Below, piece by piece: positions 30,773 through 53,127 of a stretch of DNA of 64,000 nucleotides. The notes under the pieces are model-generated. The model made no database searches and was not told where the DNA came from. It was given only the letters and a program-made list of their open reading frames with translations. Location of the stretch: positions 15,383-79,382 of the forward strand of contig JBIOUX010000039.1 of the NCBI GenBank assembly GCA_044867425.1, written 5' to 3'. The translations under genes and the position numbers were made by a program. Position 1 is the stretch's first letter. Every line of letters starts with the position of its first letter. This DNA is from Acidimicrobiia bacterium (GTDB lineage Bacteria > Actinomycetota > Acidimicrobiia > IMCC26256 > BP-133).

Positions 30773-30800
30773 TTGACGAGCGGACTGCAATCAGTATAGT
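30773..30800 (+). promoter_or_regulatory. Sigma-70-like promoter TTGACG-N16-TATAGT upstream of the flavoprotein/nitrile hydratase operon
   Basis: TTGACG at 30773-30778, a 16-nt spacer, TATAGT at 30795-30800. The same TTGACG-N16-TATAGT arrangement recurs upstream of the paralogous flavoprotein gene (53127-53100, minus strand). Confidence 0.45.
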
Positions 30801-30830
30801 CAATGCCTCCTCACGTATCGTGAATGGTGG

Positions 30831-32033
30831 GTGGGCGTGCCGGCAAGGGTCATCGTCGTCGGAAACGGAGCTGGAGGGGTCGGCGCCACCGCGGCCGTCC
30901 GGGCCACGGACCCCGGGGCCGAGGTCAGCAACTGCTGGCCCGTCAGCGGCATCGACGTCGACCGCCGGACGGTCGACGTGGGGGGCCGGGGAGCAGCGGG
31001 CTGGGATCGCCTGATCCTCACCGCCGCGGCGTCGCCCGCCGGCCCCGCCGGGCTGCCCACCGACCTCGAGGGCCTCTATCCCGTGGCCGCCATCCCGTCG
31101 GGCAGCGACTGGGACCAGGTCCTGGCCTCGGTCAAGGTGGCGGTGGTGGTGGATGCCACCCCCGCCGGCCTGGAGATGGTGGCCACCCTGGCCTCGCGGG
31201 GCATCGAGACGCACGTGGTCGACCCGCAGGCCTCGGTTCTGGCCGGCTCAGTGGACCAGGAGATCGCCGCCCCGGTGGAGGAGTCGTGGGGCGAGATGGG
31301 CGTGAAAACCCACTTCAACACCCGGGTGGAGGACTACCTGGGCGAGGGCCGGGTGCAGGGTGTGCGCACCTCCGCGGGCGAGCTGCCCGCCGACCTGGTG
31401 GTGGTGTGCACCCGTCCGCCGGTGGCCAACGACCTGGCCGCCGCCGCCGGCCTGGAGATCTCCCCCGCCGGCGGCATCGTCGTCGATGATCACATGGCCA
31501 CCTCGCTGGCCGGGGTGTGGGCCGCCGGCGACGGCATCGAGCTGCCCGCCGGCGCCGCCCGCTTCGCCCTCCCCGACTCCCCCAGCCACGCCCACGCCCA
31601 GGGCCGGGTGGCGGGCACCAACGCCGCCGGCGGCAGCCGGACCTACCAGCCGGCCTATGTCCCCTGGGCCCTGTCGGCGGGCCGGTGGCTGATGGGCGGC
31701 GTCGCGTACGGCGAGACGCAGGCCACCGACCAGGGCGTCGCCTATGTGCTGGGCCAGGCGACGGGCATCTCCCGGGCCCGCTACTACCCGGACGTGAAGA
31801 AGGTGACGGTGAAGCTGCTGGCCGAGCCCGGTAGCCTGCGCCTGATCGGTGCGCAACTGGTGGGGGGCGAGGGCATCAAGGAGCGGGCCGGCTTCCTCGG
31901 CATGGCCGTCCGGATGGGCATCACCCTCACCGACCTCGCCTACATGGAGAACGTGTACTCCCCGCCCATCGGGGCGCTCAACGAGCCCATCGCCGTGGCC
32001 GCCCAGAACGGCCTGGCCTCCTTGGGGAGCTGA
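30831..32033 (+). CDS. Pyridine nucleotide-disulfide oxidoreductase (CoA-disulfide reductase/NADH oxidase-like), N-terminally deleted paralog
   Basis: VIVVGNGAGGVGA FAD motif, VAVVVDATPAGLEM NAD motif, AAGDGIE, and a C-terminal dimerisation domain. Aligns along its length with the 51680..53026 product but lacks ~48 aa that include its YSPCGIPY motif. Start GTG 30831 or 30837. Confidence 0.85.
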   Translation: MGVPARVIVVGNGAGGVGATAAVRATDPGAEVSNCWPVSGIDVDRRTVDVGGRGAAGWDRLILTAAASPAGPAGLPTDLEGLYPVAAIPSGSDWDQVLASVKVAVVVDATPAGLEMVATLASRGIETHVVDPQASVLAGSVDQEIAAPVEESWGEMGVKTHFNTRVEDYLGEGRVQGVRTSAGELPADLVVVCTRPPVANDLAAAAGLEISPAGGIVVDDHMATSLAGVWAAGDGIELPAGAARFALPDSPSHAHAQGRVAGTNAAGGSRTYQPAYVPWALSAGRWLMGGVAYGETQATDQGVAYVLGQATGISRARYYPDVKKVTVKLLAEPGSLRLIGAQLVGGEGIKERAGFLGMAVRMGITLTDLAYMENVYSPPIGALNEPIAVAAQNGLASLGS

Positions 32034-32035
32034 CG

Positions 32036-32344
32036 ATGAGACTGGGACTGGGACAGGGACTGGAGAAGGGACGGGGGAAAGCGTTGCAAGGAGCCCGCTG
32101 GCTGCGGTCGAACTCCGAGCACTACCTCCTCCTCGACGCCCAGACCCGCATGGCGGCCCGCTACGGGCGCCCCGCCCCGTCGCCGCCCAAGGGGGCGCGC
32201 GAGCTGTTCTGGCGCCAGGTCTTCGCCCCCACCTACCGTCGTCTCCCCTGGAAAGCCCGCCTGGCTCTCATCAACCGGATGCCCGGCAGCCACCGCCGGG
32301 ACTGGTCGAGCCGCTCTGTTCCCACCCGCCGGCCGGCCATCTGA
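32036..32344 (+). CDS. Hypothetical basic protein (102 aa)
   Basis: ATG lies 2 nt after the flavoprotein stop, so translational coupling is possible. GC3-rich from codon ~20. Sequence ...RELFWRQVFAPTYRRLPWKARLALINRMPGSHRR.... I recognise no family. Confidence 0.5.
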   Translation: MRLGLGQGLEKGRGKALQGARWLRSNSEHYLLLDAQTRMAARYGRPAPSPPKGARELFWRQVFAPTYRRLPWKARLALINRMPGSHRRDWSSRSVPTRRPAI

Positions 32345-32437
32345 GCCGGCCCCACGTTGCTGGATGTTTCACCGCAGTGCCAACGCCGTTGTAGACCCCA
32401 CCACAACTGACAACCCCCAGACCGAGGGAGGTCCCCT

Positions 32438-32923
32438 ATGCCAAAGACCGTCACCCACAAAGTGAGTGAAGGCGACACCCTGTACAACGTCGAAGAGAAG
32501 CTCTTCGAGGACATCCGGGCCAATCCGGGTGAGCAGGCCTACGTCTTCATCCACAGCGTGCCCTACGAAGCCTCCGTGGCCCTGGTCAACCTGCTGACCT
32601 CCACCCGGCTGGTCCGCAAGGGCTTCGACGTCAAGATCGTGCTCTACGGACCGGGCGTCCTCCTCGCCTCGGGCTCCCGCGGCTACCCCTCGGTAGGCAG
32701 CGAAGCCTTCCCCGGCCACCTGGCCATCAACAACCAGATCAAGACCCTCCTCAAGGAAGGGGCCACGATCTACGCCTGCCGCTTCGCCATGGGTGCCCTC
32801 TACGGCTTCCGGGAGGACGACCTCATCGAGGGCATCACGCCCTTCAACCCCCTCGACGTCCTCGACTCCGCCCTCACCGCCTGGCGGGCGGGCGCTTTCC
32901 AGATCAACACCTGGACGGTCTGA
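32438..32923 (+). CDS. DsrE/DsrF-like fold protein; candidate MSMEG_0572/Sll0783-family member
   Basis: GAGGGAGG RBS before ATG 32438. AYVFIHSVPYEASVALVNLL....V.KGFDVKIVLYGPGV and ATIYACRFAMGALYG resemble the DsrE-like sulfur-relay fold. The MSMEG_0572 assignment rests on context and memory only. Confidence 0.7.
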   Translation: MPKTVTHKVSEGDTLYNVEEKLFEDIRANPGEQAYVFIHSVPYEASVALVNLLTSTRLVRKGFDVKIVLYGPGVLLASGSRGYPSVGSEAFPGHLAINNQIKTLLKEGATIYACRFAMGALYGFREDDLIEGITPFNPLDVLDSALTAWRAGAFQINTWTV

Positions 32924-33003
32924 CCGGTATCGGGGTGGTGGGACGCCCGGCCTCGTAGGGGGGGCCGGGCGTCTCTCGCCTCGAGGGACACGAGGAGGTG
33001 CCC

Positions 33004-33666
33004 GTGGACAGCATCGCCGACATGGGCGGGATGCAGGGCTGGGGATCGGTGCCCTACGAGCCTGACGAGCCGCCGTTCCACGAGCCGTGGGAGGGGCGGG
33101 CCTTCGCCATGACGCTCCTGGCCATCAACCGGATCTCGGGGCAGAACCTCGACGCCATGCGTCATGCCCTGGCCCGCCTCCACCCCGTCGACTATCTGGT
33201 CGACGGCTACTACGGCCGCTGGCTCAACTGCGCCGAGCTCATGCTGGTCGACAGCGGCGTTATCGCTCCCGGGGCCATCGACGCCCGGGCCCGGCGCCTG
33301 CGGGGCGAGGACGTCGAAGAACCTCCCGAGCCGGAGCTCAACAAGCCCGACTACGCCGCCACCGGGCCCGGGTCCCTGCGCCAGGTCGACGACCAGCCCC
33401 TCTTCAAGGTGGGCCAGACGGTCCGGGCCAAGGACATCCATCCCACCGGCCACACCCGCCTGCCCCGCTACGTCCGGGGCCGGACGGGGGTGGTGCAGGG
33501 CATGCACCCCGCCGCGCTGCTCCCTGACACCCACGCCCACTTCCAGGGCGAGAACGCTCAGGCCGTCTACGACGTGGCCTTCGACTCGGCTGAGCTGTGG
33601 GGTCCGGACGGGGAGAGCTTCACCCTCCACATCGACTGCTACGAGACGTATCTGGAGGAAGTCTGA
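33004..33666 (+). CDS. nthB: Nitrile hydratase beta subunit
   Basis: [14 protein letters not shown]....[18 protein letters not shown]... and C-terminal [14 protein letters not shown]...........VY.V.F...ELWG are canonical NHase-beta blocks. GTG 33004 with GAGGAGG upstream (the ORF-track start 32998 is too close to the RBS). Confidence 0.92.
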
Positions 33667-34265
33667 TGACGACCACGCCCGCCACCGAACGAATCCCCCC
33701 CTCCCTGCGGACCGAGGCCCTGGAAGCGATCCTGACCGAGCGGGGCCTCGTCGACCCGGCCGTGCTCGACAAGTTCATCTCCATGTACGAGAACGACGTC
33801 GGACCCCTCAACGGGGCCAAGGTGGTGGCCAAGGCCTGGACCGATCCGGAGTACAAGGAGCGCCTGCTGGCCGACGGCACGGCCGCCATCGCCGAGCTGG
33901 GCTACAAGGGCCCTCAGGGCGAGTGCATCGAGGTGCTGGAGAACACCCCGACGCTCCACCACCTGGTGGTGTGCACGCTGTGCTCCTGCTACCCCTGGCC
34001 CGTCCTCGGCCTGCCCCCCTCCTGGTACAAGGACCCCGCCTACCGGGCGCGGGCGGTCCGGGAGCCGCGGGCGCTCGTGGCCGAGTTCGGTCTCGAGCTC
34101 GGTGACGACGTGGAGATCCGGGTGTTCGACTCCAGCTCCGAGGTGCGCTTCATGGTGCTGCCCGAGCGGCCCCCCGGCAGTGAATCCATGTCCGAAGAGG
34201 AGCTGGCCGCCCTGGTGACCCGCGACGCCATGACGGGCATCGCCAAGGTGACGCTGCCGGCGTGA
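33666..34265 (+). CDS. nthA: Nitrile hydratase alpha subunit, cobalt type
   Basis: Metal-binding claw [20 protein letters not shown]. Thr in VC-T-LCSC and Tyr after CSC mark Co-type enzymes. The ATG overlaps the beta-subunit stop (TGATG). Confidence 0.95.
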
Positions 34266-34266
34266 C

Positions 34267-34620
34267 GTGAACCTCGACATCGCCGGCCCCGCCGCCCCGC
34301 CCCGGTCCAACGGCGAGCTGGTCTTCACGTATCCGTGGGAGAGCCGGGCCTTCGGCCTGGCCGTCACCCTGCACGCCGGCGGGGCCTTCGAGTGGGAGGA
34401 CTTCCGCCAGCAGCTCATCGCCGCGGTGGGGCGCTGGGAGGCCGACCATCCCCGGGCCGAGGGATGGTCGTACTACACCTGCTGGCTCGAGGCCCTGGAA
34501 CAGGTTCTGGCCACCGAAGGCCTCGTTCTGGCCGACGACGTCGCGTGTCGGGCCGTCGAGCTGGCCGGACGTCCGTCCAGCCATGGCCACCGCCACGACG
34601 ACCACGGGCACGGGCACTGA
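34267..34620 (+). CDS. Nitrile hydratase accessory (activator/metallochaperone) protein with a His-rich tail
   Basis: ELVFTYPWESRAFGLAVTL......W.DFRQQLIA resembles the beta-subunit N-terminus, as in NHase activators. The C-terminus is SSHGHRHDDHGHGH. GTG lies 1 nt after the alpha stop. Confidence 0.85.
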   Translation: MNLDIAGPAAPPRSNGELVFTYPWESRAFGLAVTLHAGGAFEWEDFRQQLIAAVGRWEADHPRAEGWSYYTCWLEALEQVLATEGLVLADDVACRAVELAGRPSSHGHRHDDHGHGH

Positions 34621-34627
34621 GGCGGCC

Positions 34628-35041: not shown

Positions 35042-35117
35042 TGGCCGGTCCGGGTTTGCCTCCCAGGAGGGGGGTAGCCTCATAACAGGCCTCCCACACC
35101 TGAGAGGAGGAGGACAG

Positions 35118-35372
35118 GTGACCGAGACCGGTTCCCGCAGCGGCTACGACAGCACCGCGGAAAAGGCTCAGGGCCAGACGAAGAAGGTCACGGGCAAGCT
35201 CAGCGACGACATGGAGAAGGCAGAGGAAGGCGCGGTTCAGGAGACCCTCGCCCAGGAGCAGAAGATCAGGCCCTCGAGCCCTGGCAGCGCCTCAAGGCGG
35301 CTGAGGAGATGGAGGACAATCCCGGCCGGTAGGTCGGGCCTGACCTCGACAGCCTCAGGCTCATCCGCCTGA
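35118..35372 (+). CDS. Small hypothetical protein (weakly CsbD-like N-terminus); 3' end uncertain
   Basis: Strong RBS GAGAGGAGGAGGA 3-8 nt before GTG 35118. AEKAQGQTKKVTGKLSDDMEKAEEG is vaguely CsbD-like. The last ~35 codons are Arg/Ser-rich and an alternative frame looks more protein-like, so a frameshift or shorter product is possible. Confidence 0.3.
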   Translation: MTETGSRSGYDSTAEKAQGQTKKVTGKLSDDMEKAEEGAVQETLAQEQKIRPSSPGSASRRLRRWRTIPAGRSGLTSTASGSSA

Positions 35373-36017
35373 AGCTGATCCGCCCTCCAGCCGCCGGCGC
35401 TGTGCCTCGATGGCCGCCGTCCACTCGGCCCTGTCCTCGAAGGACTCCTCCATGGCCAGGTCGCCGTCCGGCTCCAGCCGTTCACCGGTGACCGGGTCGA
35501 GACGGACGACCTCCAGGCGGAAGAAGGCGGCGCCGGTGTCGGGGTCGGCCTCCACCGTCTGGCTCAGCCCGGTGCCGGTAGGGACGTGCATCTCGAGCCG
35601 CACCCAGGGCACGAGACCGGCCGACGCCGGCGAGCCGGACTCGGAGACCAGGACCCAGGCGCTGCCCTCCTGGGCGGCGGCGGCCAGGCGGGCCAGGCGC
35701 TCGGCGCGGGCCGCCGGCCCGGCCAGCTCCCGGTAGCGCATGGAGAAGCCGGCCCCGGCCACCAGGTTGATGTCCAGGTCGGCCAGGGGCAGCAGGGCCA
35801 GCGACGACGCCCGGTACACGATGTCGGAGGCGTCGGGCCAGGCCGCCACCAGGGCGGGCAGGTCCCCGCAGGAGCCCAGCTCGTCGGCCACCTTGCGCAC
35901 CAGCTCGACGGCCCGCTGGTAGAGATCGGGCCGGACCATGATGACGGGATACAGGCGCTCCTCGGCCGAGCTCCAGGTCGACAGCAGCTCGGCGGGCACC
36001 CCGAGTGGGATTGTCAT
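35361..36017 (-). CDS. Hypothetical protein (218 aa)
   Basis: ATG 36017. GC3-rich with normal composition (MTIPLGVPAELLSTWSSAEERLYPVIMVRPDLYQRAVELV...). I recognise no family. The rest of the 555-aa ORF is antisense junk over arcC. Confidence 0.55.
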   Translation of the reverse strand: MTIPLGVPAELLSTWSSAEERLYPVIMVRPDLYQRAVELVRKVADELGSCGDLPALVAAWPDASDIVYRASSLALLPLADLDINLVAGAGFSMRYRELAGPAARAERLARLAAAAQEGSAWVLVSESGSPASAGLVPWVRLEMHVPTGTGLSQTVEADPDTGAAFFRLEVVRLDPVTGERLEPDGDLAMEESFEDRAEWTAAIEAQRRRLEGGSASGG

Positions 36018-36095
36018 TCGCGCCCTCCCTCTACTATCGTGAACGCGAGGTTTCTCATCCTGTATGCCGCGCCGCCAGAGGAGGGGCCCGACGCA

Positions 36096-37082
36096 ATGGG
36101 CCGGATCGTAGTCCTCGCCTTGGGAGGCAACGCCCTGTGCCCCGTCGGAGCCGCGGGGACCTACGAGGAGCAGGAGCACAACGCCGCCCTCATGGCCCGC
36201 TCCGTCTGCTCGCTCATGTGGACGGGCTGGGACGTCGTGGTCGTGCACGGCAACGGCCCCCAGGTGGGCAACCTGGCCATCCAGCAGGAGGAGGGCTCGG
36301 ACCTCGTCCCGGCCCAGCCTCTCTTCGTCCTGGGCGCCATGACACAGGGCCAGCTCGGCAGCCTCCTCACCCTGGCCCTGCGCAAGGTGGCCGGTCCCCG
36401 GGGGCCCGACGTCGTGTCGGTGGTCACCCACGCCCTGGTCGACCCGGCCGATCCCGCCTTCTCCGACCCGACCAAGCCCATCGGGCCGTTCATGACGGCC
36501 GAGGAGGCGAAGGAGAACGCCGCCGCCCGGGGCTGGACAGTCAAAGAGGACGCGGGGCGGGGCTGGCGCCGGGTGGTGCCCTCCCCTGAGCCCCTGGGGC
36601 TCCTGGAGGCCCCCGCCATCCGGGCCCTGCTGGGGGAAGGCTTCCTCGTGGTGGCCGGTGGCGGCGGGGGCATTCCCCTTGTCCCCACCCGCGACGGGTA
36701 CCGGGGCGTGGAGGCGGTGATCGACAAGGACTACGCCGCCGCCGCCCTGGCCACCTCGCTCGGCGCTTCGGCCCTGGTGTTGGTGACGAGCGTGGAGTCG
36801 GTCCTCCTCGACTACGGCACCCCCGAGCAGCGGCCGGCGGAGGAGATGACCCTGGAAGACGCCGAGCGCCACCTGCACGACGGCCAGTTCCCCGAGGGCA
36901 GCATGGGCCCCAAGGTGCGCTCCGCCACCCGGTTCCTGCGGGCCGGCGGCGAGACCGCCGTCATCACCACCCCGGCGCTGGTCTACGCCTCCCTGGAAGG
37001 CACGGTGTCGGAGCTGGAGGGCCATCACGGGACCCGGATCGTGCGGTTGCGCCAGGTCGAAACGGAGAGCCCCCTGCTGTGA
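36096..37082 (+). CDS. arcC: Carbamate kinase
   Basis: RIVVLALGGNAL...VVVVHGNGPQVG...KPIGPF...GW.V.EDAGRGWRRVVPSP.P......I..L...G..VVAGGGGGIP...G.EAVIDKD.A...LA are canonical carbamate kinase blocks. Confidence 0.92.
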   Translation: MGRIVVLALGGNALCPVGAAGTYEEQEHNAALMARSVCSLMWTGWDVVVVHGNGPQVGNLAIQQEEGSDLVPAQPLFVLGAMTQGQLGSLLTLALRKVAGPRGPDVVSVVTHALVDPADPAFSDPTKPIGPFMTAEEAKENAAARGWTVKEDAGRGWRRVVPSPEPLGLLEAPAIRALLGEGFLVVAGGGGGIPLVPTRDGYRGVEAVIDKDYAAAALATSLGASALVLVTSVESVLLDYGTPEQRPAEEMTLEDAERHLHDGQFPEGSMGPKVRSATRFLRAGGETAVITTPALVYASLEGTVSELEGHHGTRIVRLRQVETESPLL

Positions 37083-38281
37083 CGCTGCCCGTCCTGCTCG
37101 TGGCCCACTCCACCCGGCCCCGGGGCGGCCTGGTGCACACCCTGTTCCTGGCCGAGGCCCTCCACCGCCTGGGCCAGCCCGTCGGTCTGGTGGCCCTGGG
37201 CGACCCGGCCGAGGGCCTGTTCCGGGCCACGGCCGTGCCCCACACGATCCTGCCCTCCCCGCCGCCGGCCCCGACGCTGGAGGAACGGGTGTTCGCCGCC
37301 GTCGACGCCCTGGAAGACGGGCTGCGGGGTCTGGTCAAGGGGCCCACCATCCTCCACGCCCAGGACTGCATCGCGGCCCGGGCCGCCGGGCGCATCCGCG
37401 ACGCCGACCGCTTCCCCGCCCTGACCGGTGTGCGCATCGTCCGCACCGTCCACCACTGCGACGACTTCACCACCGAGATCCTGGTCGAGTGCCAGCGCCG
37501 CTCCATCCACGACCCCGACCGGGTGCTGGTGGTGAGCCGGCAGTGGCAGGACATCCTGGCTGCCGACTACGACGTGAAGGCCGACATCGTGGCCAACGGC
37601 ATCGACCCGGATCGCTTCGGCCCGGCCGTTCCCGGTCAGCGGGATGAGCTCCGTTCCCGGCTGGGCGTGGGCGACGGCGGGTTCTTCGTGTTGACGGTGG
37701 GCGGCATCGAACCCCGCAAGGGGACCGCCACCCTGTTCGAGGCGCTGGCGGTTTTGAAGAGCCGCCTCGCCGTGGCCCCCGTGCTCGGCATCGTGGGCGG
37801 CCACTCCTTCCAGGACTACAAGGCGTACCGGGACGCCGCCCTGGCCCGCCTGCCCGAGCTCGGCCTGGAACTGGGACGGGACGTCGTCCTCCTCGGCACC
37901 GTCTCCGATGAAGAGCTCGGCGGCTGGTACCGGGCCGCCGACGCCTTCGCCTTCCCCTCGGTCAAGGAGGGCTTCGGCCTGGTGGTGCTGGAGGCGATGG
38001 CGATGAGTCTCCCCGTGGTGGCGACCGACATCCCCGTCTTCGCCGAGTACCTGACCGACGGGAAGAATGCCCTCCTGGCGCCGGCCGGTGACGCCACCGG
38101 CCTGGCCGGCGCCCTGGAACGGCTGGCCACCGACCCGGCGTTACGGGAGCGTCTGGTCGCCGGCGGCGCCGACGTGGTGGGCCGCTTCACCTGGGAAGCC
38201 AGCGCCCGTCGCCACATCGACATCTACGCCGCCGTGGAAGAGACGCAGAAGCTGCCGTCCGTCCCGTCCGTCCTGGAGTAG
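37079..38281 (+). CDS. GT4-family glycosyltransferase (candidate MSMEG_0565-type)
   Basis: C-terminal GT-B motif FAFPSVKEGFGLVVLEAMAMSLPVVATDIPVFAEY. The GTG start overlaps the arcC stop (GTGA). Confidence 0.88.
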   Translation: MTLPVLLVAHSTRPRGGLVHTLFLAEALHRLGQPVGLVALGDPAEGLFRATAVPHTILPSPPPAPTLEERVFAAVDALEDGLRGLVKGPTILHAQDCIAARAAGRIRDADRFPALTGVRIVRTVHHCDDFTTEILVECQRRSIHDPDRVLVVSRQWQDILAADYDVKADIVANGIDPDRFGPAVPGQRDELRSRLGVGDGGFFVLTVGGIEPRKGTATLFEALAVLKSRLAVAPVLGIVGGHSFQDYKAYRDAALARLPELGLELGRDVVLLGTVSDEELGGWYRAADAFAFPSVKEGFGLVVLEAMAMSLPVVATDIPVFAEYLTDGKNALLAPAGDATGLAGALERLATDPALRERLVAGGADVVGRFTWEASARRHIDIYAAVEETQKLPSVPSVLE

Positions 38282-38327: not shown

Positions 38328-38355
38328 GGGCACGGGTCCCGGCGATAATTCCGGC

Positions 38356-39395: not shown

Positions 39396-40430
39396 CTAGG
39401 AGCTCGCCGTGTCCTCGTCGAAGACGCGGCTCTTGAGCAGGTCCTCGGCTTCGATGCGCATCAGGTCGTCGCGGCCCACCTGGCGCTTCCCGCCGGAGAC
39501 GAGCCGGTTGGCGTGGCGGAGCCGGGCCCGCTCCAGGGCGTTGCGGACGGACCGGGCGTTGGCGAAGCGGGGCTGGATGCGGCGCCGCTCCAGGTAGTCC
39601 CGGAAGGCCTCCTGGGCCTCGGGGGAGAGCTCGTAGCGCTGCTCGGTGAGCATGAGGTCGCCGATGGCCAGCAGCTCGTCGAGGCCGTACTCGGGGAAGT
39701 CGATGTGGTGGGCGATGCGGGAGCTCATCCCCGGGTTGGACTGGAAGAAGGTGTCCATCCGGTCCTTGTAGCCGGCGAGGATGACGACGAGATCCTCCCG
39801 CTGGTTCTCCATCACCTGGAGGAGGATCTCGATCGCCTCCTGGCCGTAGTCCCGCTCGTTCTCCGCCCGGTGCAGGTAATAGGCCTCGTCGATGAACAGC
39901 ACCCCGCCCATGGCCCGGCGCAGCACGTCCCTGGTCTTGGGTGCGGTGTGCCCGATGTACTGGCCCACCAGCTCGTCCCGGGTGACCGACACCAGGTGGC
40001 CCTTGCCCAGGTAGCCCAGGCTGTGGAGCAGCTCCCCCATCCGCATGGCCACCGTGGTCTTGCCCGTCCCCGGAGGGCCGGTGAAGGACATGTGGAGCGT
40101 GGGCCGGGTGGAGTCGAGCCCGAAGCGGCACCGGAGGCGGTCGACGAGGAGGAGGGCGGCGATCTCCCGGATGCGGGTCTTGACCGGCACCAGCCCGACC
40201 AGCTCCCGGTCGAGGCGGTCGAGGACGGCGTCGACCTCGAGGGAGCGCCGCTCGGCGTCGATGTCGACCAGGGCGTCAGCCGCCAGCGGCTCGTCCTCCT
40301 CCGGTGCCGGCTCTGCCTCCTTGTTCTCCTCCGGTTCCGTCCGGACGTCGGGTTGGCGGCCGCCGGGCGCGGGCACGGCGAAGCCGAAGCGGGCCCCGCC
40401 CCCGCCGTTGGCCGCGCCGTCACCCGTCAT
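39396..40430 (-). CDS. cbbX: CbbX, AAA+ red-type RuBisCO activase
   Basis: [28 protein letters not shown], Walker [12 protein letters not shown], Walker [26 protein letters not shown]. Sits directly downstream of cbbS. Confidence 0.93.
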
Positions 40431-40433
40431 CCG

Positions 40434-40862: not shown

Positions 40863-40878
40863 GGATGCTCCGCTCCTC

Positions 40879-42393
<1,515 letters not shown>

Positions 42394-45538: not shown

Positions 45539-45714
45539 ATCCGCCTCCGATTCGAGCCATAATCCCCGCCCGGCTCCCGCTCGCCGCCGCCGAAGCTCGG
45601 TCGGCGGCAGTGGGCGTCGCGTGGCGGATAGGAAAAACAGCGTTCACCATAGGAGACGGCACCCCATCTGACAAGCGTCTATCGTTCGGACGCTCTCTGA
45701 CGCGTTTCTTATGG

Positions 45715-45744
45715 TTGACGCCCATGTCGGAAAGTAGTTAGATT
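45715..45744 (+). promoter_or_regulatory. Candidate promoter TTGACG-N18-TAGATT for the radical-SAM operon
   Basis: TTGACG at 45715-45720 and TAGATT at 45739-45744, in an AT-enriched divergent intergenic region ~30 nt upstream of GTG 45774 (RBS GAGGGAGG). Confidence 0.35.
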
Positions 45745-45773
45745 TCACGCCTGGCTGCGAGAGGGAGGTCGAC

Positions 45774-46913
45774 GTGGATGTCGAAACGCCGGTAGACCTC
45801 GCCTGGCTGATCACCGAGCTCCAGAGCCGCGGCCTGCGGGCCGAGACCCCGATGGAGGGCCGGCGGGGCGGGGCGGGCCCCTCGGACTCGGGGATGCTCT
45901 GGATCGAAGGGGTGGCCGTCACCGTCCCCACCGACGCCCCCTGGGCCCGCTCCTCCCCCTATTCGCTGCGGCCCGAGGATGACGGCTTTGGCATCTACCG
46001 GGACGGCGCCCGGCTGGCCGGGGCCTCGGGCAGCCAGCGGCCCCGCTACTACGACCTGACCACCGCCGACGGGATTCCCTACTGGAAGATCGCCCCCCTC
46101 CACCTCGACTCGCTGGCCTCCACCGTCCTCCAGGCCTGCGCCTACTGGGGCAACGACGACCAATGCCGCTTCTGCGGGATCGGCCTGTCGCTGGAGGCCG
46201 GCCGTACCATCGCCCGCAAGTCACCCGAGCAGCTGGCCGAGGTGGCGGTGGCGGCCAAGGAGCTCGACGGCGCCGTCGACGCCACCCTCACCACCGGCTC
46301 GACCTCCGCCCCCGACAAGGGCGCCCTCTACGTGGGCCGCTGCGGGGCGGCCGTCAAGGCGGCCGCCGGCCTGCCCGTCGAGGTCCAGTTCGAACCCCCC
46401 GCCGACCTCGACGCCATCGACGCCGTGGCCGACATGGGCATCGACTCGGTCGGCATCCACGTGGAGACCTTCGACCCCGAGGTCCTGGCCCGGGTGGCGC
46501 CGGCCAAGGCCCGCACCGGCGTCGAGGGCTACTTCGCGGCCTGGGAGCGGGCCGTGGCCCGCTTCGGGCAGGGCCAGGTCTCCACCTACGTGATCCTGGG
46601 CATGGGCGAGGACCCCGAGCTCACCGTGGCCGGGTGCCGGCGGGCCATCGACATGGGCGTCTACCCCTTCGTGGTGCCGCTGCGGCCGATCGCCGGCACC
46701 CTCATGGAGGACCACGTACCGCCCTCGGCCGCCTACACCGAGTCCATCTACCGCCGGGTGGTGCCCTACCTCACCGCCCGGGGCATCACCGCCGGGGCCG
46801 TCTCCGCCGGCTGCGCCCGCTGCCAGGCCTGCTCGGCCATGGGGGCCATGGAGCGCACCGTCGAGCTGGGGGGCCGGCGGGCCAGCATCCCGCTCCAGGA
46901 CGCCCGGAGCTGA
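45774..46913 (+). CDS. Radical SAM protein, candidate MSMEG_0568 family
   Basis: Cys cluster CAYWGNDDQCRFCG (C-x8-C-x2-C), a TIM-barrel-like core (DSVGIHVETFDPEVLARVAP.K........F..W..A...F..G.VSTYVILGMGE) and C-terminal CARCQAC. Followed without a gap by its usual GNAT partner. Confidence 0.85.
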   Translation: MDVETPVDLAWLITELQSRGLRAETPMEGRRGGAGPSDSGMLWIEGVAVTVPTDAPWARSSPYSLRPEDDGFGIYRDGARLAGASGSQRPRYYDLTTADGIPYWKIAPLHLDSLASTVLQACAYWGNDDQCRFCGIGLSLEAGRTIARKSPEQLAEVAVAAKELDGAVDATLTTGSTSAPDKGALYVGRCGAAVKAAAGLPVEVQFEPPADLDAIDAVADMGIDSVGIHVETFDPEVLARVAPAKARTGVEGYFAAWERAVARFGQGQVSTYVILGMGEDPELTVAGCRRAIDMGVYPFVVPLRPIAGTLMEDHVPPSAAYTESIYRRVVPYLTARGITAGAVSAGCARCQACSAMGAMERTVELGGRRASIPLQDARS

Positions 46914-47426
46914 GTGGTGGCCGAACGCAGCGTCCTCGCCCGCCAGGTTCCCGGGCTCGAAGCCGCCGGGCGGCTGCCGCTGGCGTGCCGGATGGCGCTC
47001 AGCGCCGAGGAGCTCGCCCTGCACCATCGCATCCGCCACCAGGTGTTCGTCGACGAACAGCGCATCTTCACCGGGTCCGACGTCGACGTCCACGACGACG
47101 AGGCCGCCACCATCCGGGTCATCGGGACGGCGGGAGCGGTGGTGGCGGGGGCCGTCCGCCTGTACCCGCTGGAGCCCACCGGCGAGCTGTGGCTGGGCGA
47201 CCGGCTGGCGGTGCTGCCCGCCTTCCGCATCCAGGGGCTGGGCAAACCGCTCGTCCGCTTCGCCGTGGCCACCGCCGCCCGCCTCGGGGGCCGGGAGATG
47301 CAGGCCCACATCCAGCCGCCCAACGTCCGCTTCTTCGAGCGGCTGGGCTGGGAGTGCCGGGGCCCGGTGGAGATCTACGTCGGGACCCCCCACCAGCCCA
47401 TGGCCATCGATCTGACTGCTCTTTGA
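46914..47426 (+). CDS. GNAT N-acetyltransferase, candidate MSMEG_0567/Sll0786 family
   Basis: HHRIRHQVFVDEQRIF...D.HD......IG........GAVRLYP, then FRIQGLGKPLVRFAV..A...G...M.A.IQ..NV.FFE.LGW. The GTG abuts the preceding TGA. Confidence 0.85.
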   Translation: MVAERSVLARQVPGLEAAGRLPLACRMALSAEELALHHRIRHQVFVDEQRIFTGSDVDVHDDEAATIRVIGTAGAVVAGAVRLYPLEPTGELWLGDRLAVLPAFRIQGLGKPLVRFAVATAARLGGREMQAHIQPPNVRFFERLGWECRGPVEIYVGTPHQPMAIDLTAL

Positions 47427-47432
47427 GGTGCC

Positions 47433-48836
47433 ATGACACTCGTCCTGCCTGAGGACGTGGCCGTCGTCAACGTCGGCCTCTCGCTCTTCACCGATGCCAT
47501 CCGGGACCAGGACCGGCCCGTCCAGAGCGTCGACTGGCGCATCCCGGCCGGCGGCGACCTCGAGGCGGTGGCCGCCCTCCGCCGGCTCTACGGCCCCAAG
47601 GCGGAAGCGATCGACGCCGCCAACGCCGAGGTGGTCCGCCGGCTCGACCAGGGTGTGCCCATGCTGGTGGGGCTGGAGCCCGCCTCCCGGGTCGTGCCCG
47701 ACCTGGGCGAGCGCACGATCCTGCACTGCGGCCCCCCCATCGGCTGGGACGACATGTGCGACCCGCTGCGCCGCTCGGTCCAGGCGGCGGTGGTGGCCGA
47801 GGGCTGGGCCGCCAGCCCCGGTGAGGCGGGCGCCCTGGTGGCCGGAGGCCAGGTCGCGCTCGAGCCGGCCAACGCCCACATGACGGTCATTCCCATGGCC
47901 AGCGCCATCGGGCCCTCGGCCTGGGTGTGGGTGGTCGAGTGCGGCGAGGCCGGCACCCGGGCCTTCTCCGCCGTCAACCAGGGGCCGGGCGAGGTGGCCT
48001 GGTTCGGCCGGGACACCCCCGCCGCCGTCCAGCGCCTGGTCTTCCTGGCCGAGGTGGCGGGCCCCCTGCTGGCGGAAGCCGTGGGCCGGGCCGGGCCCAT
48101 GGACGTCTTCGGCCTGGCCGCCCAGGGCCTGCAGATGGGCGACGACGTCCACATGCGCAGCCAGGCCACCACCAACATCCTGTGGCGCCACCTCCTACCC
48201 CACCTGGTGGCCCTGGAGGACCCCCGGCGCGTCGACCTGGCCACCTTCCTGGCGTCCAACCACCTCTTCTTCCTCAACCTGGCCATGGCCGGGGCCCGCT
48301 CCCTCACCGAGTGGGCCCGGCAGGTCCCGGGTTCGAGCGTGGTGTGGAGCATGGCCCGCAACGGGACGACCTTCGGGGTCAAGCTGCCGGGCCTGGACGA
48401 CTGGTTCCTGGCCCCCGCCCCGCCCGTCACCCATGCCCTCTACTACTCGGGCGAGGGGCCGGAGACGAGCGCCCCGGACATCGGCGACAGTGCTCTCCTC
48501 GAGCTGGTCGGCCTCGGCGGTCCGGCGGGGGCGGCCTCGCCCGCCGTGGCCTCCTTCGTGGGCGGCACCATGGACGACGCCATCCGCCTCACCCTGGACA
48601 TGGACCGCATCTGCGCCGGGCGCAGCAGCCGCTTCAAGCTGCCCCTGCTGGACTTCCGGGGGACGCCGATCGGGGTGGACGTCCGCCGGGTGGTGGAGAC
48701 CGGCATCACCCCCAGGATCAACACCGGGATCCTCCACGTCTCGGCCGGGACGGGACAGGTGGGCGCCGGGGTGGCGGTCGCTCCCCTGGAGTGCTTCTCC
48801 CAGGCCCTCCTCGCCCTCGACCGCCACCTGGCTTGA
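47433..48836 (+). CDS. DUF1116-family protein (YlbE/AllG-like)
   Basis: 467 aa; ...ILHCGPPI.W..MC.P.R.......V.EGWA and MRSQATTNIL...L... match my recollection of YlbE-type proteins. Gene order fdrA / DUF1116 / DUF2877 matches E. coli fdrA-ylbE-ylbF. Confidence 0.8.
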   Translation: MTLVLPEDVAVVNVGLSLFTDAIRDQDRPVQSVDWRIPAGGDLEAVAALRRLYGPKAEAIDAANAEVVRRLDQGVPMLVGLEPASRVVPDLGERTILHCGPPIGWDDMCDPLRRSVQAAVVAEGWAASPGEAGALVAGGQVALEPANAHMTVIPMASAIGPSAWVWVVECGEAGTRAFSAVNQGPGEVAWFGRDTPAAVQRLVFLAEVAGPLLAEAVGRAGPMDVFGLAAQGLQMGDDVHMRSQATTNILWRHLLPHLVALEDPRRVDLATFLASNHLFFLNLAMAGARSLTEWARQVPGSSVVWSMARNGTTFGVKLPGLDDWFLAPAPPVTHALYYSGEGPETSAPDIGDSALLELVGLGGPAGAASPAVASFVGGTMDDAIRLTLDMDRICAGRSSRFKLPLLDFRGTPIGVDVRRVVETGITPRINTGILHVSAGTGQVGAGVAVAPLECFSQALLALDRHLA

Positions 48837-48927
48837 CCTGCCTGACGGCGGAGGGACCGCCCGGCCCGCCGCCTCCAAGGAACTTGTGCGTTTTTTGCCA
48901 GCAATCACTGGCAGAAAGCCCACAAGA

Positions 48928-49710
48928 ATGGATTTCCACCCCGTGAGCGGCCTCCGGGTCGGCGCCGGCGCCCGCGAGGTGCTGGCCACACTCGGCCCGG
49001 GGGAAGTGCTGGCCGTCTACCGGCGCGCCGCCTACCTCCGCCTCCCCGGCGGCATCGTGGCCCTGGTGGTTCCCGGCGTCCCGCCCGGCCCACTTTGGAT
49101 CGCCGGTGGCCTCGACCCCGAGGCTTCCCTCGGGTTAGGGGATCCGGTTGCCGTCGGGGACGGCTGGCTGGAGGTGGCGGGCAGAAGGTTGGACGTCGGC
49201 GGGGCGGACACGTGGCGGGGACCGCTCCCCGACCCAGCCGCCCTGCGGGCCGCCCGGCCGCTGGCGCTTGACGTTCTCGCTGCCGCCCCCCCTTCGTCGC
49301 TGCTCGACGAGCCCTGGCGGCCGGCGCTCCGCCAGGCCGAGGCGACCGTGGGCACCGGGGACCTCGTGGAGGCCGCCGGCATCCTCGGGGGCCTCGGGCC
49401 CGGCCTCACGCCGGCCGGTGACGACGCCCTGGCCGGCATCCTCCTCGCCCGCCGGGGCCTCGCCGGCGCGAGCACCGAGGAGGACCTCATGGCCGTCGCC
49501 CGGGCCGCCCGCACCACGGACCTCAGCGCGGCCCTCCTCTCCTGGGCGGCGCGGGGCCAGGCGGTGGAACCGGTCCACGACCTCCTCTCCGCCGTCGCCG
49601 CCGGCGACCGGCCGACGGCGGCCGCCGCCACCGCACGCGTCGCCGCCCTCGGCGCCTCCTCTGGTGCCGATCTGCTGCTCGGCCTCCGCCTCGGCCTTTC
49701 GGCCGGCTGA
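48928..49710 (+). CDS. DUF2877-family protein (YlbF/AllH-like)
   Basis: GLGPGLTPAGDDALAGILLA and GASSGADLLLG motifs typical of DUF2877. ATG 48928 (upstream ORF extension ignored). Confidence 0.8.
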   Translation: MDFHPVSGLRVGAGAREVLATLGPGEVLAVYRRAAYLRLPGGIVALVVPGVPPGPLWIAGGLDPEASLGLGDPVAVGDGWLEVAGRRLDVGGADTWRGPLPDPAALRAARPLALDVLAAAPPSSLLDEPWRPALRQAEATVGTGDLVEAAGILGGLGPGLTPAGDDALAGILLARRGLAGASTEEDLMAVARAARTTDLSAALLSWAARGQAVEPVHDLLSAVAAGDRPTAAAATARVAALGASSGADLLLGLRLGLSAG

Positions 49711-49774
49711 ACTCCCCCGGTCTTCCACCCCGGGGGGTGAGGTGGGCCACCCCTGGTTTCCGTAGCGTCAACCC

Positions 49775-50794
49775 ATGGACACCACCATGCTCATCGCCAC
49801 CGCCCAGGCCCTGGTCGCGCCCGGCAGAGGGATCCTCGCCGCCGACGAGAGCACCGCCACCATCACCAAGCGCTTCAACGCCCTCGGGATCGAGTCGACC
49901 GCCGACTCCCGGCGGGACTACCGGGAAGTGCTCCTCACCTGCCCGGCGCTGGCCGGTACGGCGGGCGGGGTCATCCTCTACGACGAGACGCTGCGCCAGT
50001 CGGCCGCCGACGGCACGCCCTTCCCCCAGCTCCTGAAGGGCCAGGGCGTCATCCCCGGCATCAAGGTGGACACCGGGGCCAAGCCCCTGGCCGCCTGCCC
50101 CGACGAGACGGTCACCGAGGGGCTCGACGGCCTGTGCGAGCGCCTGGCCGAGTACCGGGAGCTGGGCGCGGGGTTCGCCAAGTGGCGGGCGGTGATCAGC
50201 ATCGGGGACGGCCGCCCCAGTGCCACCTGCCTGGACGCCAACGCCCACGCCCTGGCCCGCTACGCCGCCCTGTGCCAGGAGGCCGGGATCGTGCCCGTGG
50301 TCGAGCCCGAGGTCCTGATGGACGGTGATCACGACATCCACCGCTGCTACCAGGAGACCAGCGCCGCCCTCCAGTCCGTCTTCGCCGCGCTGGCCACCCA
50401 CCGCGTCGTCCTCGAGGGCATCGTCCTCAAGCCCAACATGGTCCTCCCCGGCGCCCGGTGTGTCGACCAGGTCCCGGTGGACGCGGTGGCCGACGCCACG
50501 CTGAGCTGCCTGGCCCAGAACGTGCCGGTGGCCGTACCCGGCGTCGCCTTCCTCTCGGGGGGCCAGGGCCCGGAGGTGGCCACGGCCCATCTGAACGCCA
50601 TGAACGTCAAGGGCGGCGCCCCCTGGCGGCTCACCTTCTCCTTCGGCCGGGCCCTCCAGGACCCGGCGCTGCGGACCTGGGGCGGCAAGCCCAGCAATGC
50701 CGAGGCGGCCCAGCTGGCCCTGGCCCACCGGCTCAACCTCACCGCCGCCGCCTCCCAGGGCACCTACGACCCGGAGATGGAAACAGCCGCCTGA
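49775..50794 (+). CDS. Fructose-bisphosphate aldolase, class I
   Basis: GRGILAADESTATITKRF..LGIE.T...RR.YRE.L...........GVILYDETL.Q....G.PF...L...G..PGIKVD.G and LKPNMV (Schiff-base Lys region). Confidence 0.92.
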   Translation: MDTTMLIATAQALVAPGRGILAADESTATITKRFNALGIESTADSRRDYREVLLTCPALAGTAGGVILYDETLRQSAADGTPFPQLLKGQGVIPGIKVDTGAKPLAACPDETVTEGLDGLCERLAEYRELGAGFAKWRAVISIGDGRPSATCLDANAHALARYAALCQEAGIVPVVEPEVLMDGDHDIHRCYQETSAALQSVFAALATHRVVLEGIVLKPNMVLPGARCVDQVPVDAVADATLSCLAQNVPVAVPGVAFLSGGQGPEVATAHLNAMNVKGGAPWRLTFSFGRALQDPALRTWGGKPSNAEAAQLALAHRLNLTAAASQGTYDPEMETAA

Positions 50795-50879
50795 GTGGGG
50801 AGGAAAAGTGCGGCGCAACGGCCGGGAATCGGCTCGCCGGACTTGACTACTAAACTGAATGCCTGTCTACTATCGTCCT

Positions 50880-51683
50880 ATGCAGTCCTTCCTCCGCCTC
50901 CCCCGCCGCAGCGAGAAGCCCCGGTTCGTCGGGCTCACGCACGTCATCGACAAGGGCCTCCCGCTGGCCGAGCTCGAATCGCTGCTGGCCGCGTCGGGGG
51001 AGTACGTCGATGTCTGGAAGCTGGGCTTCGGCACGGCCTATCTCGACCCCACCGTCGAGGCGAAGGTGGCGGTGCTCACCGGGGCCGGGAACCGGGCCTG
51101 CCTGGGCGGCACCCTCCTCGAGGTGGCCTGGGCCCAGGGCCGGGCCGAGGAGTGCCTCAACTGGGCCGGGGAGGTCGGCTTCTCCTGCGTCGAGGTGTCG
51201 AACGGCAGTTGCCACATGCCGCTGGCGGCCAAGCGGAACCTGATCGCCACCGCCAGCCGGAACTTTGTGGCCATCTCCGAGGTGGGCTCCAAGAACCCCC
51301 AGACGCCGGTGTCGCCCGCGGCGTGGGCCGAGGAGATGACGGGCGACATCGAGGCCGGCGCCACCTGGGTGCTGGCCGAGGGGCGCGAGAGCGGCACCGT
51401 GGGCCTCTATGACGCCGACGGCCGGGTCCGGGAGGAGCTGGCCGAGGCCCTGGTCGCCGCCGTCGGGTTGCGCTTCGTGGTCTTCGAGGCCCCCCGGTCG
51501 GCTCAGCAGGCATGGTTCGTGAACCGCTTCGGCTCGGCCGTGAACCTGGGCAACATCGCCCCGGCGGAGCTGCTGGCCGTCGAATCGCTGCGCCTCGGAC
51601 TGCGGGCTGACACCTTCGGGCTGGGCCAGCCCGTCCTCCACGCCGCCGAGGGCCAGCCCGCCGTCGTCGGCGAGAGCGCCTAG
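50880..51683 (+). CDS. comA: Phosphosulfolactate synthase (ComA family)
   Basis: LP.R..KPR..GLTHVIDKGL........LL..SGEYVDVWKLGFGT.......V..K......AG......GGTL.E.A.......E......E.GF..VEVSNG, then EGRESG and VFEAP...QQ.WF...FGS.VNLGNI. Start ATG 50880 (TACTAT 6 nt upstream) or ATG 50859. Confidence 0.88.
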   Translation: MQSFLRLPRRSEKPRFVGLTHVIDKGLPLAELESLLAASGEYVDVWKLGFGTAYLDPTVEAKVAVLTGAGNRACLGGTLLEVAWAQGRAEECLNWAGEVGFSCVEVSNGSCHMPLAAKRNLIATASRNFVAISEVGSKNPQTPVSPAAWAEEMTGDIEAGATWVLAEGRESGTVGLYDADGRVREELAEALVAAVGLRFVVFEAPRSAQQAWFVNRFGSAVNLGNIAPAELLAVESLRLGLRADTFGLGQPVLHAAEGQPAVVGESA

Positions 51684-53026
51684 CTGTCTGATCCTGACCG
51701 GGCGGCGGCCAGCCCGTTCTGGGCGGCCAGGACGATGGCCTCGTCGACGGCGCCCATGGAGGGCGCGTAGACGGTCTCCATGTTGGCCAGGTCGGTGAGC
51801 GTGACGCCCGTCTTGACCGCTATGGCCAGGAAGTCGGCCCGCTCCTTGATGCCCTCGCCGCCCACCATCTGGGCGCCGATGAGCCGCAGGCTGCCGGGCT
51901 CGGCCAGGAGCTTGACCCGGAGCTTCTTGTCGTCGGCGTAGTACCGGGCCCGGGAGATGGTCTCGGCCAGCCCGACCACGTGGGGGATGCCGAGGGCGGC
52001 GGCCAGGGTCTCGCCGAAGGCCACGCCGCCGATCATCCACTTCCCCGCCACCATGCCCCAGGGAACGTAGACGGGCTGGTAGGCCCGCTTGCCCCCGCCG
52101 GCGTTGGTCCCCGCCACCTTGCCCTGGGCGTAGGCATGGCTGCCCGAGAGGCCCTGCAGGGGGATGTTGGCCACGCCGTGGGGCACCTCGATGCAGTCGC
52201 CGGCGGCGTAGACGTCGGGCACCGAGGTGGCCATCCGCTCGTCGACGATGATGCCCCCGGTGGAGCCGATCTCGATGCCGGCGGCGGCGGCCAGATCGTT
52301 GCGGGGCACCTTCTTGGTGCAGACCACCACCAGGTCGGCGGGCAGCTCACCGGCGGAGGTGCGCACCCCCCGGACGTGGCCCTTCCCGTCGTCCAGGAAG
52401 GCCTCGAGCTCGGTGTTGAAGTGCATCTTCACGCCCATCTCGGCCCAGGAGTCCTCCACCGGCCCGGCGATGTCGGGGTCGGCCGCCTCGGCCATGGCCC
52501 ACGGGAAGGGATCGATCAGATGCGTCTCGATCCCCCGGTGGGGCAGGGCGGTGACCATCTCGAGGCCCAGCGGTGAGGCCTCGACCACCACCGCCACCTT
52601 GGCCTGGTCGATGACCTTGTCCCACTCCATGGCCCGGCGGATGTTCTTCACGTAGTAGAGCCCGTCGAGATCCGAGCCGGGCACGCCGGGGTCGGCGTAG
52701 TCGAAGCCGGTGGCCAGGATCAGCCGGTCCCAGGGCACCTCGCCCTCGCCCTCCACCGTCACCACCCGGCGGGTCACGTCGATCCCCGTCACCTTGGTGG
52801 AGTAGTGGATGTCGATGCCCGCCTCGACGTAGGCCTCCTTGCCGGCCAGGAACAGCCGGTCGAAGTCGGGGATCTCCTTGCCGTGGACGTAGGGGATCCC
52901 GCACGGGCTGTAGGCGGCGTCCTCGTACTCGGTGTAGACGGTCACCTGACCCGACCGGTCGGCGGCCCGGGCCGCACCCGCCGCTCCGATGCCTGCGGCG
53001 CCGCCGCCCACGATGACGGTCCTCAT
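51680..53026 (-). CDS. Pyridine nucleotide-disulfide oxidoreductase (CoA-disulfide reductase/NADH oxidase family), full-length paralog
   Basis: MRTVIVGGGAAGIGAAGAA, candidate redox Cys motif YSPCGIPY, VAVVVEASPLGLEM, AAGDCIEV, and a dimerisation domain. RBS GGAGGCGGGGAGG. Confidence 0.9.
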   Translation of the reverse strand: MRTVIVGGGAAGIGAAGAARAADRSGQVTVYTEYEDAAYSPCGIPYVHGKEIPDFDRLFLAGKEAYVEAGIDIHYSTKVTGIDVTRRVVTVEGEGEVPWDRLILATGFDYADPGVPGSDLDGLYYVKNIRRAMEWDKVIDQAKVAVVVEASPLGLEMVTALPHRGIETHLIDPFPWAMAEAADPDIAGPVEDSWAEMGVKMHFNTELEAFLDDGKGHVRGVRTSAGELPADLVVVCTKKVPRNDLAAAAGIEIGSTGGIIVDERMATSVPDVYAAGDCIEVPHGVANIPLQGLSGSHAYAQGKVAGTNAGGGKRAYQPVYVPWGMVAGKWMIGGVAFGETLAAALGIPHVVGLAETISRARYYADDKKLRVKLLAEPGSLRLIGAQMVGGEGIKERADFLAIAVKTGVTLTDLANMETVYAPSMGAVDEAIVLAAQNGLAAARSGSDS

Positions 53027-53099
53027 GACAGCCTCCCCGCCTCCGACGACCGGCCCGTCTGCTGGCGGGCGCGTGTCTACGATAGTGAGTGAGGCGTTT

Positions 53100-53127
53100 A
53101 CTATACGGCCGACCAGCCGTCCGTCAA
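53100..53127 (-). promoter_or_regulatory. Sigma-70-like promoter TTGACG-N16-TATAGT upstream of the flavoprotein paralog
   Basis: Minus-strand TTGACG (53127-53122), 16-nt spacer, TATAGT (53105-53100). It overlaps the 3' end and stop of the PP2C gene. Same architecture as 30773-30800. Confidence 0.45.

Follow-up and report, generated by a model that had tools for sequence, protein, structure and literature searches.

The stretch of DNA analysed here, hereafter the window, comprises 64,000 nt of an Acidimicrobiia bacterium (GenBank assembly GCA_044867425.1, contig JBIOUX010000039.1, positions 15,383–79,382 of the forward strand; G+C content 72%) and carries a nitrile-hydratase gene cluster. Five promoter regions of this cluster contain an 18-bp imperfect palindrome, CGTyCA-gtATAG-TnAACG, which recurs in front of orthologous first genes in related loci. 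Judging from sequence and gene neighbourhood, the palindrome probably serves as operator for a factor specific to the cluster. This factor is most likely the XRE-cupin regulator encoded at 30105–30737, which would act as a local repressor.

An earlier note on this DNA had proposed a shorter AT-rich motif, (C)TA(C)TATCGT, at five sites (A–E) and in a one-mismatch variant upstream of a class-I aldolase gene, as a shared element joining several transcription units and possibly serving as an operator of the adjacent XRE-cupin regulator rather than only as a −10 box. The six strings quoted there are found in the window with exactly the coordinates and strands given. The operator proposal has become probable, while the motif itself proves to be a partial view of the palindrome.

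The palindrome and its sites in the window

The element was defined by comparison of related loci. A genome collection searched with flavoprotein D, a cluster protein, yielded 80 loci from Acidimicrobiia, Pseudonocardiaceae, Streptosporangiaceae, Geodermatophilus, Streptomyces, Euzebyaceae and others, in which homologues of the window's proteins were located by tblastn. Conservation upstream of the flavoprotein gene is visible across these loci, and de novo motif discovery by expectation-maximization in the upstream regions of 61 non-redundant loci returned CAGTATAGTAAACG as the top motif. The profile aligned on this motif is the palindrome given above; it is symmetric about the step between A4 and T5, with the pairs C-4/G13, G-3/C12, T-2/A11, A1/T8 and T3/A6. 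Positions A4, T5, A6, G7 and T8 are nearly invariant, and conservation of the flanks extends out to −4 and +13. A half-site matrix locates the opposite-strand half-site at a fixed offset in 32 of 57 non-redundant loci, and a second site on the same strand at +20/+21 in 22 and at −21 in five of these 57. From this half-site analysis it follows that TATCGT is the centre of one unit and TATAGT the centre of another.

Other readings of the arrangement were tried and rejected. TATAGTnAAC and TATCGTnAA cannot be taken together as a direct repeat of the PhoP- or GlnR-type, because the half-site offsets show each unit to be an inverted repeat. The view of the second unit as a mere −35 element of a divergent regulator promoter is not the whole explanation, since site D keeps both units without a divergent gene. 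An RNA element such as a riboswitch or leader was discarded as well: an Rfam scan of the window returned only a tRNA, and the element is palindromic and lies partly upstream of the likely transcription starts.

A 20-nt matrix was trained on 49 loci, with the window and its closest relatives (L001–L005, L007 and L019) excluded. Above 12 bits, the window contains 12 strand-hits of this matrix, compared with 0.41 expected in Markov-simulated sequence, and all intergenic matches above this threshold fall within five cluster promoter regions, namely those of xre/flavoprotein A, unk35/arcC, fdrA/radical-SAM, comA and flavoprotein D (Table 1). The idea of a shared cis-element joining transcription units is thereby borne out for these regions, although not for site E or the aldolase variant. 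The only strong match of the window outside the cluster (9518–9537, 17.3 bits, ATGAACATCATCGTGAACAA) is a false positive in the CorA gene, covering the codons of the YGMN (GMN) motif, and demonstrates that coding sequence can mimic the operator.

The reasoning by which the motif had originally been singled out, that the recurrence of an AT-rich 7–8-mer in GC-rich DNA was unlikely to be chance, finds no backing in k-mer statistics taken by themselves. CTATCGT occurs four times in the window versus 1.41 expected, a count reached in 4 of 100 shuffles, and TATCGT six times versus 4.28 expected, which is reached in 28 of 100. Five of the six TATCGT copies are non-coding, the non-coding share of hexamers with four A/T being 25.6%; this corresponds to P=0.005 if the hexamer had been named in advance. 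An equal non-coding concentration is seen in 4 of the 492 hexamer classes with four A/T, and a motif picked after reading the sequence therefore cannot rest on the non-coding count. It is the independently trained matrix that establishes the motif signal as real, the base-composition counts being weak.

Scored in register, the earlier sites B, D and A lie within true sites, C adjoins one, and neither E nor the aldolase variant is a site. B coincides with the primary operator O-B1, which is located in the 79-bp divergent region between unk35 and arcC-GT4; a second site next to it, O-B2, is marginal, given a null of 2.6 matches above 8 bits per window. A and D both fall in true sites, in each case the weaker second copy (O-A2 and O-D2) rather than the primary operator. 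The TATAGT boxes upstream of them, which had been regarded as mere −10 elements, are in fact the centres of the primary operators O-A1 and O-D1. The centre of O-D1 (53101–53105) contains the TAG stop codon of a SpoIIE-like phosphatase gene (53101–54210, minus strand), so that the promoter/operator of flavoprotein D overlaps the 3′ end of the upstream gene.

Site C does not score as an operator; it lies 20 nt downstream of a real one, the comA operator. The block TGTCTACTATCG upstream of comA is kept in the relatives L002–L004, where its last T is replaced by G; this substitution makes a −10 box a better description of site C than a full operator. The core of site C probably supplies the −10 (TACTAT) for a comA mRNA that has a short leader or none and begins at ATG 50880; otherwise it is at best a degenerate second half-site. 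Site E scores −18.3 bits in register; its TATCGT and inverted repeat are missing from L003, and it is flanked by the two real sites of the fdrA/radical-SAM region. Site E, like the aldolase variant, is a chance match; in the related loci two aldolase upstream regions could be tested, and both are without a site.

On a wider scale, the related loci, 1.22 Mb in all, yield 165 sites above 12 bits with the same matrix. When gene instances are scored for such a site within 250 nt upstream, the share is 95% for the flavoprotein, 95% (69/73) for the XRE-cupin gene and 92% (11 of 12 loci) for arcC, followed by ComA with 67% (above 10 bits in 16 of 18 loci), the AIR-synthase-like (AIRS-like) gene with 38%, unk35 with 32%, the radical SAM gene with 27% and fdrA with 17%; random windows contain a site in 3.5% of cases. 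The genes for the DsrE-like protein, the nitrile hydratase subunits, GT4, GNAT and AllG have one in only 0–5% of instances. The sites mark the first genes of transcription units, and operon-internal genes are without them.

Table 1. Operator sites, discarded matches and cluster genes in the window. Scores are those of the 20-nt matrix; for genes, the last column gives the basis of assignment.
Feature	Position	Strand	Sequence, score, basis or remark
O-A1, primary	30787–30806	+	GCAATCAGTATAGTCAATGC; 23.0 bits, top match in window; centre TATAGT
O-A2, secondary	30808–30827	+	TATCGTGAATG; 10.6 bits; 21 bp downstream of O-A1; earlier site A (30801–30824)
O-B1	36027–36046	+	CCCTCTACTATCGTGAACGC; 17.5 bits plus, 17.0 minus; earlier site B (36021–36043)
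O-B2, possible weak second site	36048–36067	-	9.0 bits; 21 bp from O-B1
fdrA-AIRS promoter operator	45640–45659	-	CCGTCTCCTATGGTGAACGC; 17.6 bits minus, 14.1 plus; kept in L003, L004
Earlier site E	45671–45690	+	Inverted repeat AGCGTC-N9-GACGCT; not part of element
Radical-SAM operon operator	45702–45721	+	GCGTTTCTTATGGTTGACGC; 14.2 and 11.6 bits on the two strands; kept in L003, L004
Aldolase one-mismatch variant	49757–49768	+	TAGCGT at 49763–49768; 1.3 bits in register; not part of element
comA operator	50843–50862	-	TTGACTACTAAACTGAATGC on plus strand; 14.8 bits; overlaps −35-like TTGACT; also in L003, L004 and aligned L002
Earlier site C core	50868–50876	+	TACTATCGT; 0.0 and 4.5 bits; earlier site C (50856–50879)
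O-D2, secondary	53073–53092	-	14.0 and 13.7 bits on the two strands; 21 bp downstream of O-D1; kept in L001–L004; earlier site D (53076–53099, minus)
O-D1, primary	53094–53113	-	GTCGGCCGTATAGTAAACGC; 18.2 bits; centre TATAGT; kept in L001–L004
LysR regulator	29189–30094	+	Pfam/NCBIfam
XRE-cupin regulator	30105–30737	-	Divergent from flavoprotein A
Flavoprotein A-to-activator target operon	30831–34620	+	Pfam, NCBIfam; synteny in 45–71 loci
Flavoprotein A	30831–32033	+	Pfam/NCBIfam
Small conserved open reading frame, ~100 aa	32036–32344	+	Between flavoprotein A and DsrE-like genes
MSMEG_0572/Sll0783-family DsrE-like protein	32438–32923	+	Pfam/NCBIfam
Nitrile hydratase beta, alpha, activator	32998–34620	+	Pfam/NCBIfam
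unk35	35361–36017	-	Without family match
Carbamate kinase (arcC)	36096–37082	+	Pfam/NCBIfam
GT4 glycosyltransferase	37079–38281	+	Pfam/NCBIfam
cbbX and putative cbbS, cbbL	39396–42366	-	cbbX: Pfam AAA+; cbbS/cbbL: N-terminal sequence only
sll0787-type AIR-synthase-like protein	42980–43963	-	Pfam/NCBIfam
FdrA	43973–45538	-	Pfam/NCBIfam
MSMEG_0568-family radical SAM protein	45774–46913	+	Pfam/NCBIfam
GNAT acetyltransferase	46914–47426	+	Pfam
AllG, AllH	47433–49710	+	Pfam/NCBIfam
Class-I aldolase	49775–50794	+	Pfam/NCBIfam
ComA	50859 or 50880–51683	+	Pfam/NCBIfam
Flavoprotein D, CoA-disulfide-reductase-like	51680–53026	-	Pfam/NCBIfam; downstream of O-D1

The candidate regulator and competing explanations

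The XRE-cupin protein combines an HTH_3 domain (residues 35–89, 1.6e-14) with a Cupin_2 domain (residues 136–205, 2.2e-20) according to Pfam; its nearest solved chain is 1y9q, an HTH_3-family regulator (7.8e-10). It is the sole regulator conserved with the cluster: in 73 of the 80 related loci its gene lies directly upstream of and divergent from the flavoprotein gene, adjoining the strongest site. Tblastn found homologues of LysR, which the earlier note had offered as an alternative binder, and of WhiB in none of the 80 loci. The recognition helix VSAAAIHK[I/V]E is invariant among 66 XRE-cupin orthologues, in agreement with the near-invariant core of the operator.

Two plasmids extend the comparison beyond Actinomycetota. 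A Methylocystis plasmid (NZ_CP143315, Alphaproteobacteria) harbours a related cluster together with an XRE-cupin orthologue of 53% identity. The fdrA/unk35 intergenic region of this plasmid contains a 20.7-bit site, corrected for composition (null 95th percentile 15.5), and some 50 nt in front of its flavoprotein gene there is a 12.3-bit match. An Acinetobacter plasmid (L082), whose Nit1C cluster is accompanied by a sigma-54 regulator and no XRE-cupin gene, has no site, the maximum being 8.2 bits compared with a null mean of 10.7. This AT-rich plasmid was scored with its own composition, as a high-GC background gave many spurious matches.

Operators in the window overlap putative core promoter elements. 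In TTGACG-N16-TATAGT at A, the centre of O-A1 is the −10 of a promoter-consensus match, and the same layout is recognized by eye for O-D1 at D; in TTGTCA-N18-TATCGT at B and TTGTCA-N17-TATGGT at fdrA the operator centre is likewise the −10. At the radical SAM promoter, TTGACG-N18-TAGATT, the operator lies over the −35 TTGACG instead. In the mechanism that we propose, a regulator dimer would bind each palindrome, with another dimer occupying, at several of the promoters, the weaker copy two helical turns (20–21 bp) away on the same face of the DNA. The bound regulator would cover the −10, the −35 or the start region and thereby block RNA polymerase, which would repress the regulator's own gene as well as five to eight transcription units of the cluster. 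If the protein behaves like PuuR, PauR and PsdR, its release from DNA would be brought about by a small molecule bound in the cupin domain. Such ligand-relieved repression is what we infer from the promoter overlap together with the published XRE-cupin factors, which repress locally, as dimers bound to palindromes, by occluding promoters (PMC7901475, PMC10965056); autoregulation is common among XRE regulators (PMC12565409).

It is important to point out that several observations weigh against an XRE-cupin repressor acting in this way. Of the two half-sites the left one is much the weaker, and the secondary sites are essentially half-sites, so that dimer binding there is uncertain. Between TTGAC and the TATAGT hexamer, individual loci have anything from 12 to 21 nt; the geometry of the promoter is thus variable, and its use here is a matter of interpretation. 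The association between regulator and site has a single negative control, the Acinetobacter plasmid, and Streptomyces chiangmaiensis (L034) has sites and no XRE-cupin gene within the 17.7 kb covered. Finally, the MSMEG_0565–0572 genes of the homologous gpr cluster in Mycobacterium smegmatis are induced >100-fold by GlnR, with a peak in chromatin immunoprecipitation (PMC6039565, PMC3662644, PMC4222082).

It is unlikely that the palindrome is bound by some factor besides the neighbouring XRE-cupin protein, either a regulator encoded elsewhere or unk35. The assignment is one of gene neighbourhood, the S. chiangmaiensis locus would fit such a binder, and unk35 is conserved, without family match and has a site in its promoter region. 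Against this stand the position of the XRE-cupin gene as the only cluster-conserved regulator, its presence alongside the site on the alphaproteobacterial plasmid and the size of the palindrome, which suits an XRE dimer (PMC7901475). We regard it as highly unlikely that the sites are GlnR boxes, through which the cluster would be activated on nitrogen starvation like the gpr cluster of M. smegmatis. There is a superficial likeness in the 5-6-5 layout, GTyCA-n6-TnAAC, and the element's period of ~21 bp is near the 22-bp period of tandem GlnR boxes in Streptomyces. The GlnR box is A[C/T]-n9-AC with critical adenines, within the direct repeat Gn2AC-n6-GnAACA (PMC3662644), whereas A[C/T]-n9-AC occurs in register in none of 55 primary sites and the element is an inverted repeat. 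The spacer, free in GlnR boxes, is the most conserved part here, and sites over −10 boxes would be unusual for an activator. Nor is the window enriched for the pattern GTnAC-n6-GnAAC (18 matches versus 25 expected). Two one-mismatch versions of it, at 49756–49771 (minus strand, TTGACGCTACGGAAAC) upstream of the aldolase gene and at 45704–45719 (minus strand) over the radical-SAM operator, are probably chance matches, given this lack of enrichment.

There is a very slim chance that the element amounts to no more than a strong housekeeping promoter, consisting of a TAnnnT −10 and its flanking bases, to which no protein is dedicated. TATAGT, TATCGT and TATGGT all fit TAnnnT, and several sites pair with TTGACx at 16–18 nt; nevertheless, conservation is symmetric over 6–7 nt on either side of the hexamer, a further TATAGT, at position 2711 of the window, scores no higher than 6 bits, and the window's non-cluster intergenic regions contain no match above 12 bits. 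The symmetric conserved flanks and the absence of matches at other promoters exclude a plain −10 reading, and O-A2, O-D2 and the radical-SAM site are positioned on a −35 or downstream of a putative start. The probability that an AT-rich k-mer has merely recurred by chance in low-GC intergenic DNA is negligible. The k-mer counts within the range of shuffles, the post-hoc choice of the motif and the fate of site E and the aldolase variant are what such a reading would lead one to expect. It is contradicted at A, B and D as well as at the sites next to C and E, which were recovered by an independently trained matrix and whose orthologues recur across orders and phyla.

The gene cluster and related systems

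Cluster gene products were assigned with Pfam and NCBIfam. Among the cluster proteins, matches to TIGR04044 (201.9 bits, cutoff 109.9) and TIGR04043 (391.6 bits, cutoff 303.7), together with one to TIGR04049 that remains under its cutoff (239.3 bits, cutoff 321.3), identify the core as the Nit1C/gpr "nitrogen starvation response" cluster, whose signature set of MSMEG_0572/Sll0783, MSMEG_0568 radical SAM, GNAT and sll0787-type AIR-synthase-like proteins co-occurs here. No Nit6803-family nitrilase or MSMEG_0569-family flavoprotein is present among the scanned cluster open reading frames, no search having been aimed at either family, and the cluster is best called a variant of Nit1C/gpr in which a cobalt-type nitrile hydratase and a CoA-disulfide-reductase-like flavoprotein fill those roles. 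Beyond the Nit1C core it adds FdrA/AllG/AllH, carbamate kinase, GT4 and ComA, and the variant is conserved in many Actinomycetota. Across the 80 related loci the DsrE-like protein is found in 71, the nitrile hydratase subunits in about 45, AllG in 43, radical SAM, GNAT, AIRS-like, GT4 and FdrA in about 27 each, and ComA in 23.

Several features of individual cluster genes stand out. Flavoprotein A is a paralogue of flavoprotein D (61% identity) that is ~40 N-terminal residues short; the missing part includes the SPCG segment, the place of the redox cysteine in CoA-disulfide reductases, and the shortened protein may differ in catalysis or be degenerate. The small open reading frame that follows is without family assignment and is detected by tblastn in 76 related loci; the Methylocystis plasmid has an unannotated "hypothetical protein" at a similar position. 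unk35, a protein of 218 aa without Pfam or NCBIfam match, occurs in 19 loci and on the Methylocystis plasmid, where its gene precedes the XRE-cupin gene in the same orientation; in the window its promoter region carries an operator. Putative form-I RuBisCO genes are situated in mid-cluster, with no operator site upstream of cbbL, and the AIRS-like gene is next to cbbL also in the close relative L004 (15494–16432; 95% identity).

The candidate regulator has the HTH_3 plus Cupin_2 architecture in common with the XRE-cupin repressors PsdR, PauR and ErfA of Pseudomonas aeruginosa and PuuR of Escherichia coli. As in those systems, the regulator gene adjoins its predicted targets and the palindromic operator lies over core promoter elements, here putative ones (PMC7901475, PMC10965056); more than one site per promoter region is possible, and autoregulation is likely (PMC12565409). 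The candidate is not an orthologue of PuuR, its top NCBIfam match (79.6 bits versus a cutoff of 211), and its operator differs from the PsdR operator TTAAG-N5-CTTAA. The predicted regulon is also larger than in the four known systems, with five promoter regions and ~20 genes; besides its conservation across Actinomycetota, it occurs on an alphaproteobacterial plasmid. The PuuR operator may resemble ATAATGAAC, a likeness that plays no part in the argument here.

Two other regulatory arrangements are attached to homologous genes. The gpr cluster of M. smegmatis, MSMEG_0565–0572, encodes homologous MSMEG_0572-family, MSMEG_0568-family radical SAM, GNAT, AIR-synthase-like and GT4 proteins, and both clusters are probably nitrogen-linked. 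In the window, nitrile hydratase replaces the nitrilase and the CoA-disulfide-reductase-like protein replaces the MSMEG_0569-type flavoprotein. GlnR, which controls gpr, is an OmpR-type activator on a direct repeat, in contrast with the inverted repeat described here, which has a conserved centre and no AC-n9-AC. The Nit1C clusters with a sigma-54 activator, known from cyanide assimilation in Pseudomonas, where the regulator is NitA, and represented here by the Acinetobacter plasmid, share homologous core genes and a dedicated regulator divergent from the first gene. That regulator is an enhancer-binding activator, and the palindrome is absent from the Acinetobacter plasmid.

Nit1C-type clusters are widespread; in Pseudomonas they have been connected with cyanide assimilation, and in Synechocystis and M. 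smegmatis with the response to nitrogen starvation. No paper was found on the regulator or operator described here, nor one that links nitrile hydratase to an XRE-cupin protein. A testable operator and a candidate regulator are now defined for a large Actinomycetota variant of Nit1C, and the operator marks which genes belong together: the five promoter regions carry it, and the aldolase and RuBisCO genes are without sites. A more tentative suggestion is that the XRE-cupin protein and its operator form a portable module, which may have travelled with the nitrile-hydratase variant of Nit1C across Actinomycetota and onto an alphaproteobacterial plasmid, the cupin domain sensing a substrate or product of the cluster. 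Derepression by candidate ligands, or knockout of the regulator, could activate the cluster in cultured carriers such as Pseudonocardia thermophila and Geodermatophilus ruber. If the module does sense such a compound, the identity of the ligand would reveal what the Nit1C core of radical SAM, GNAT and AIR-synthase-like proteins makes or degrades.

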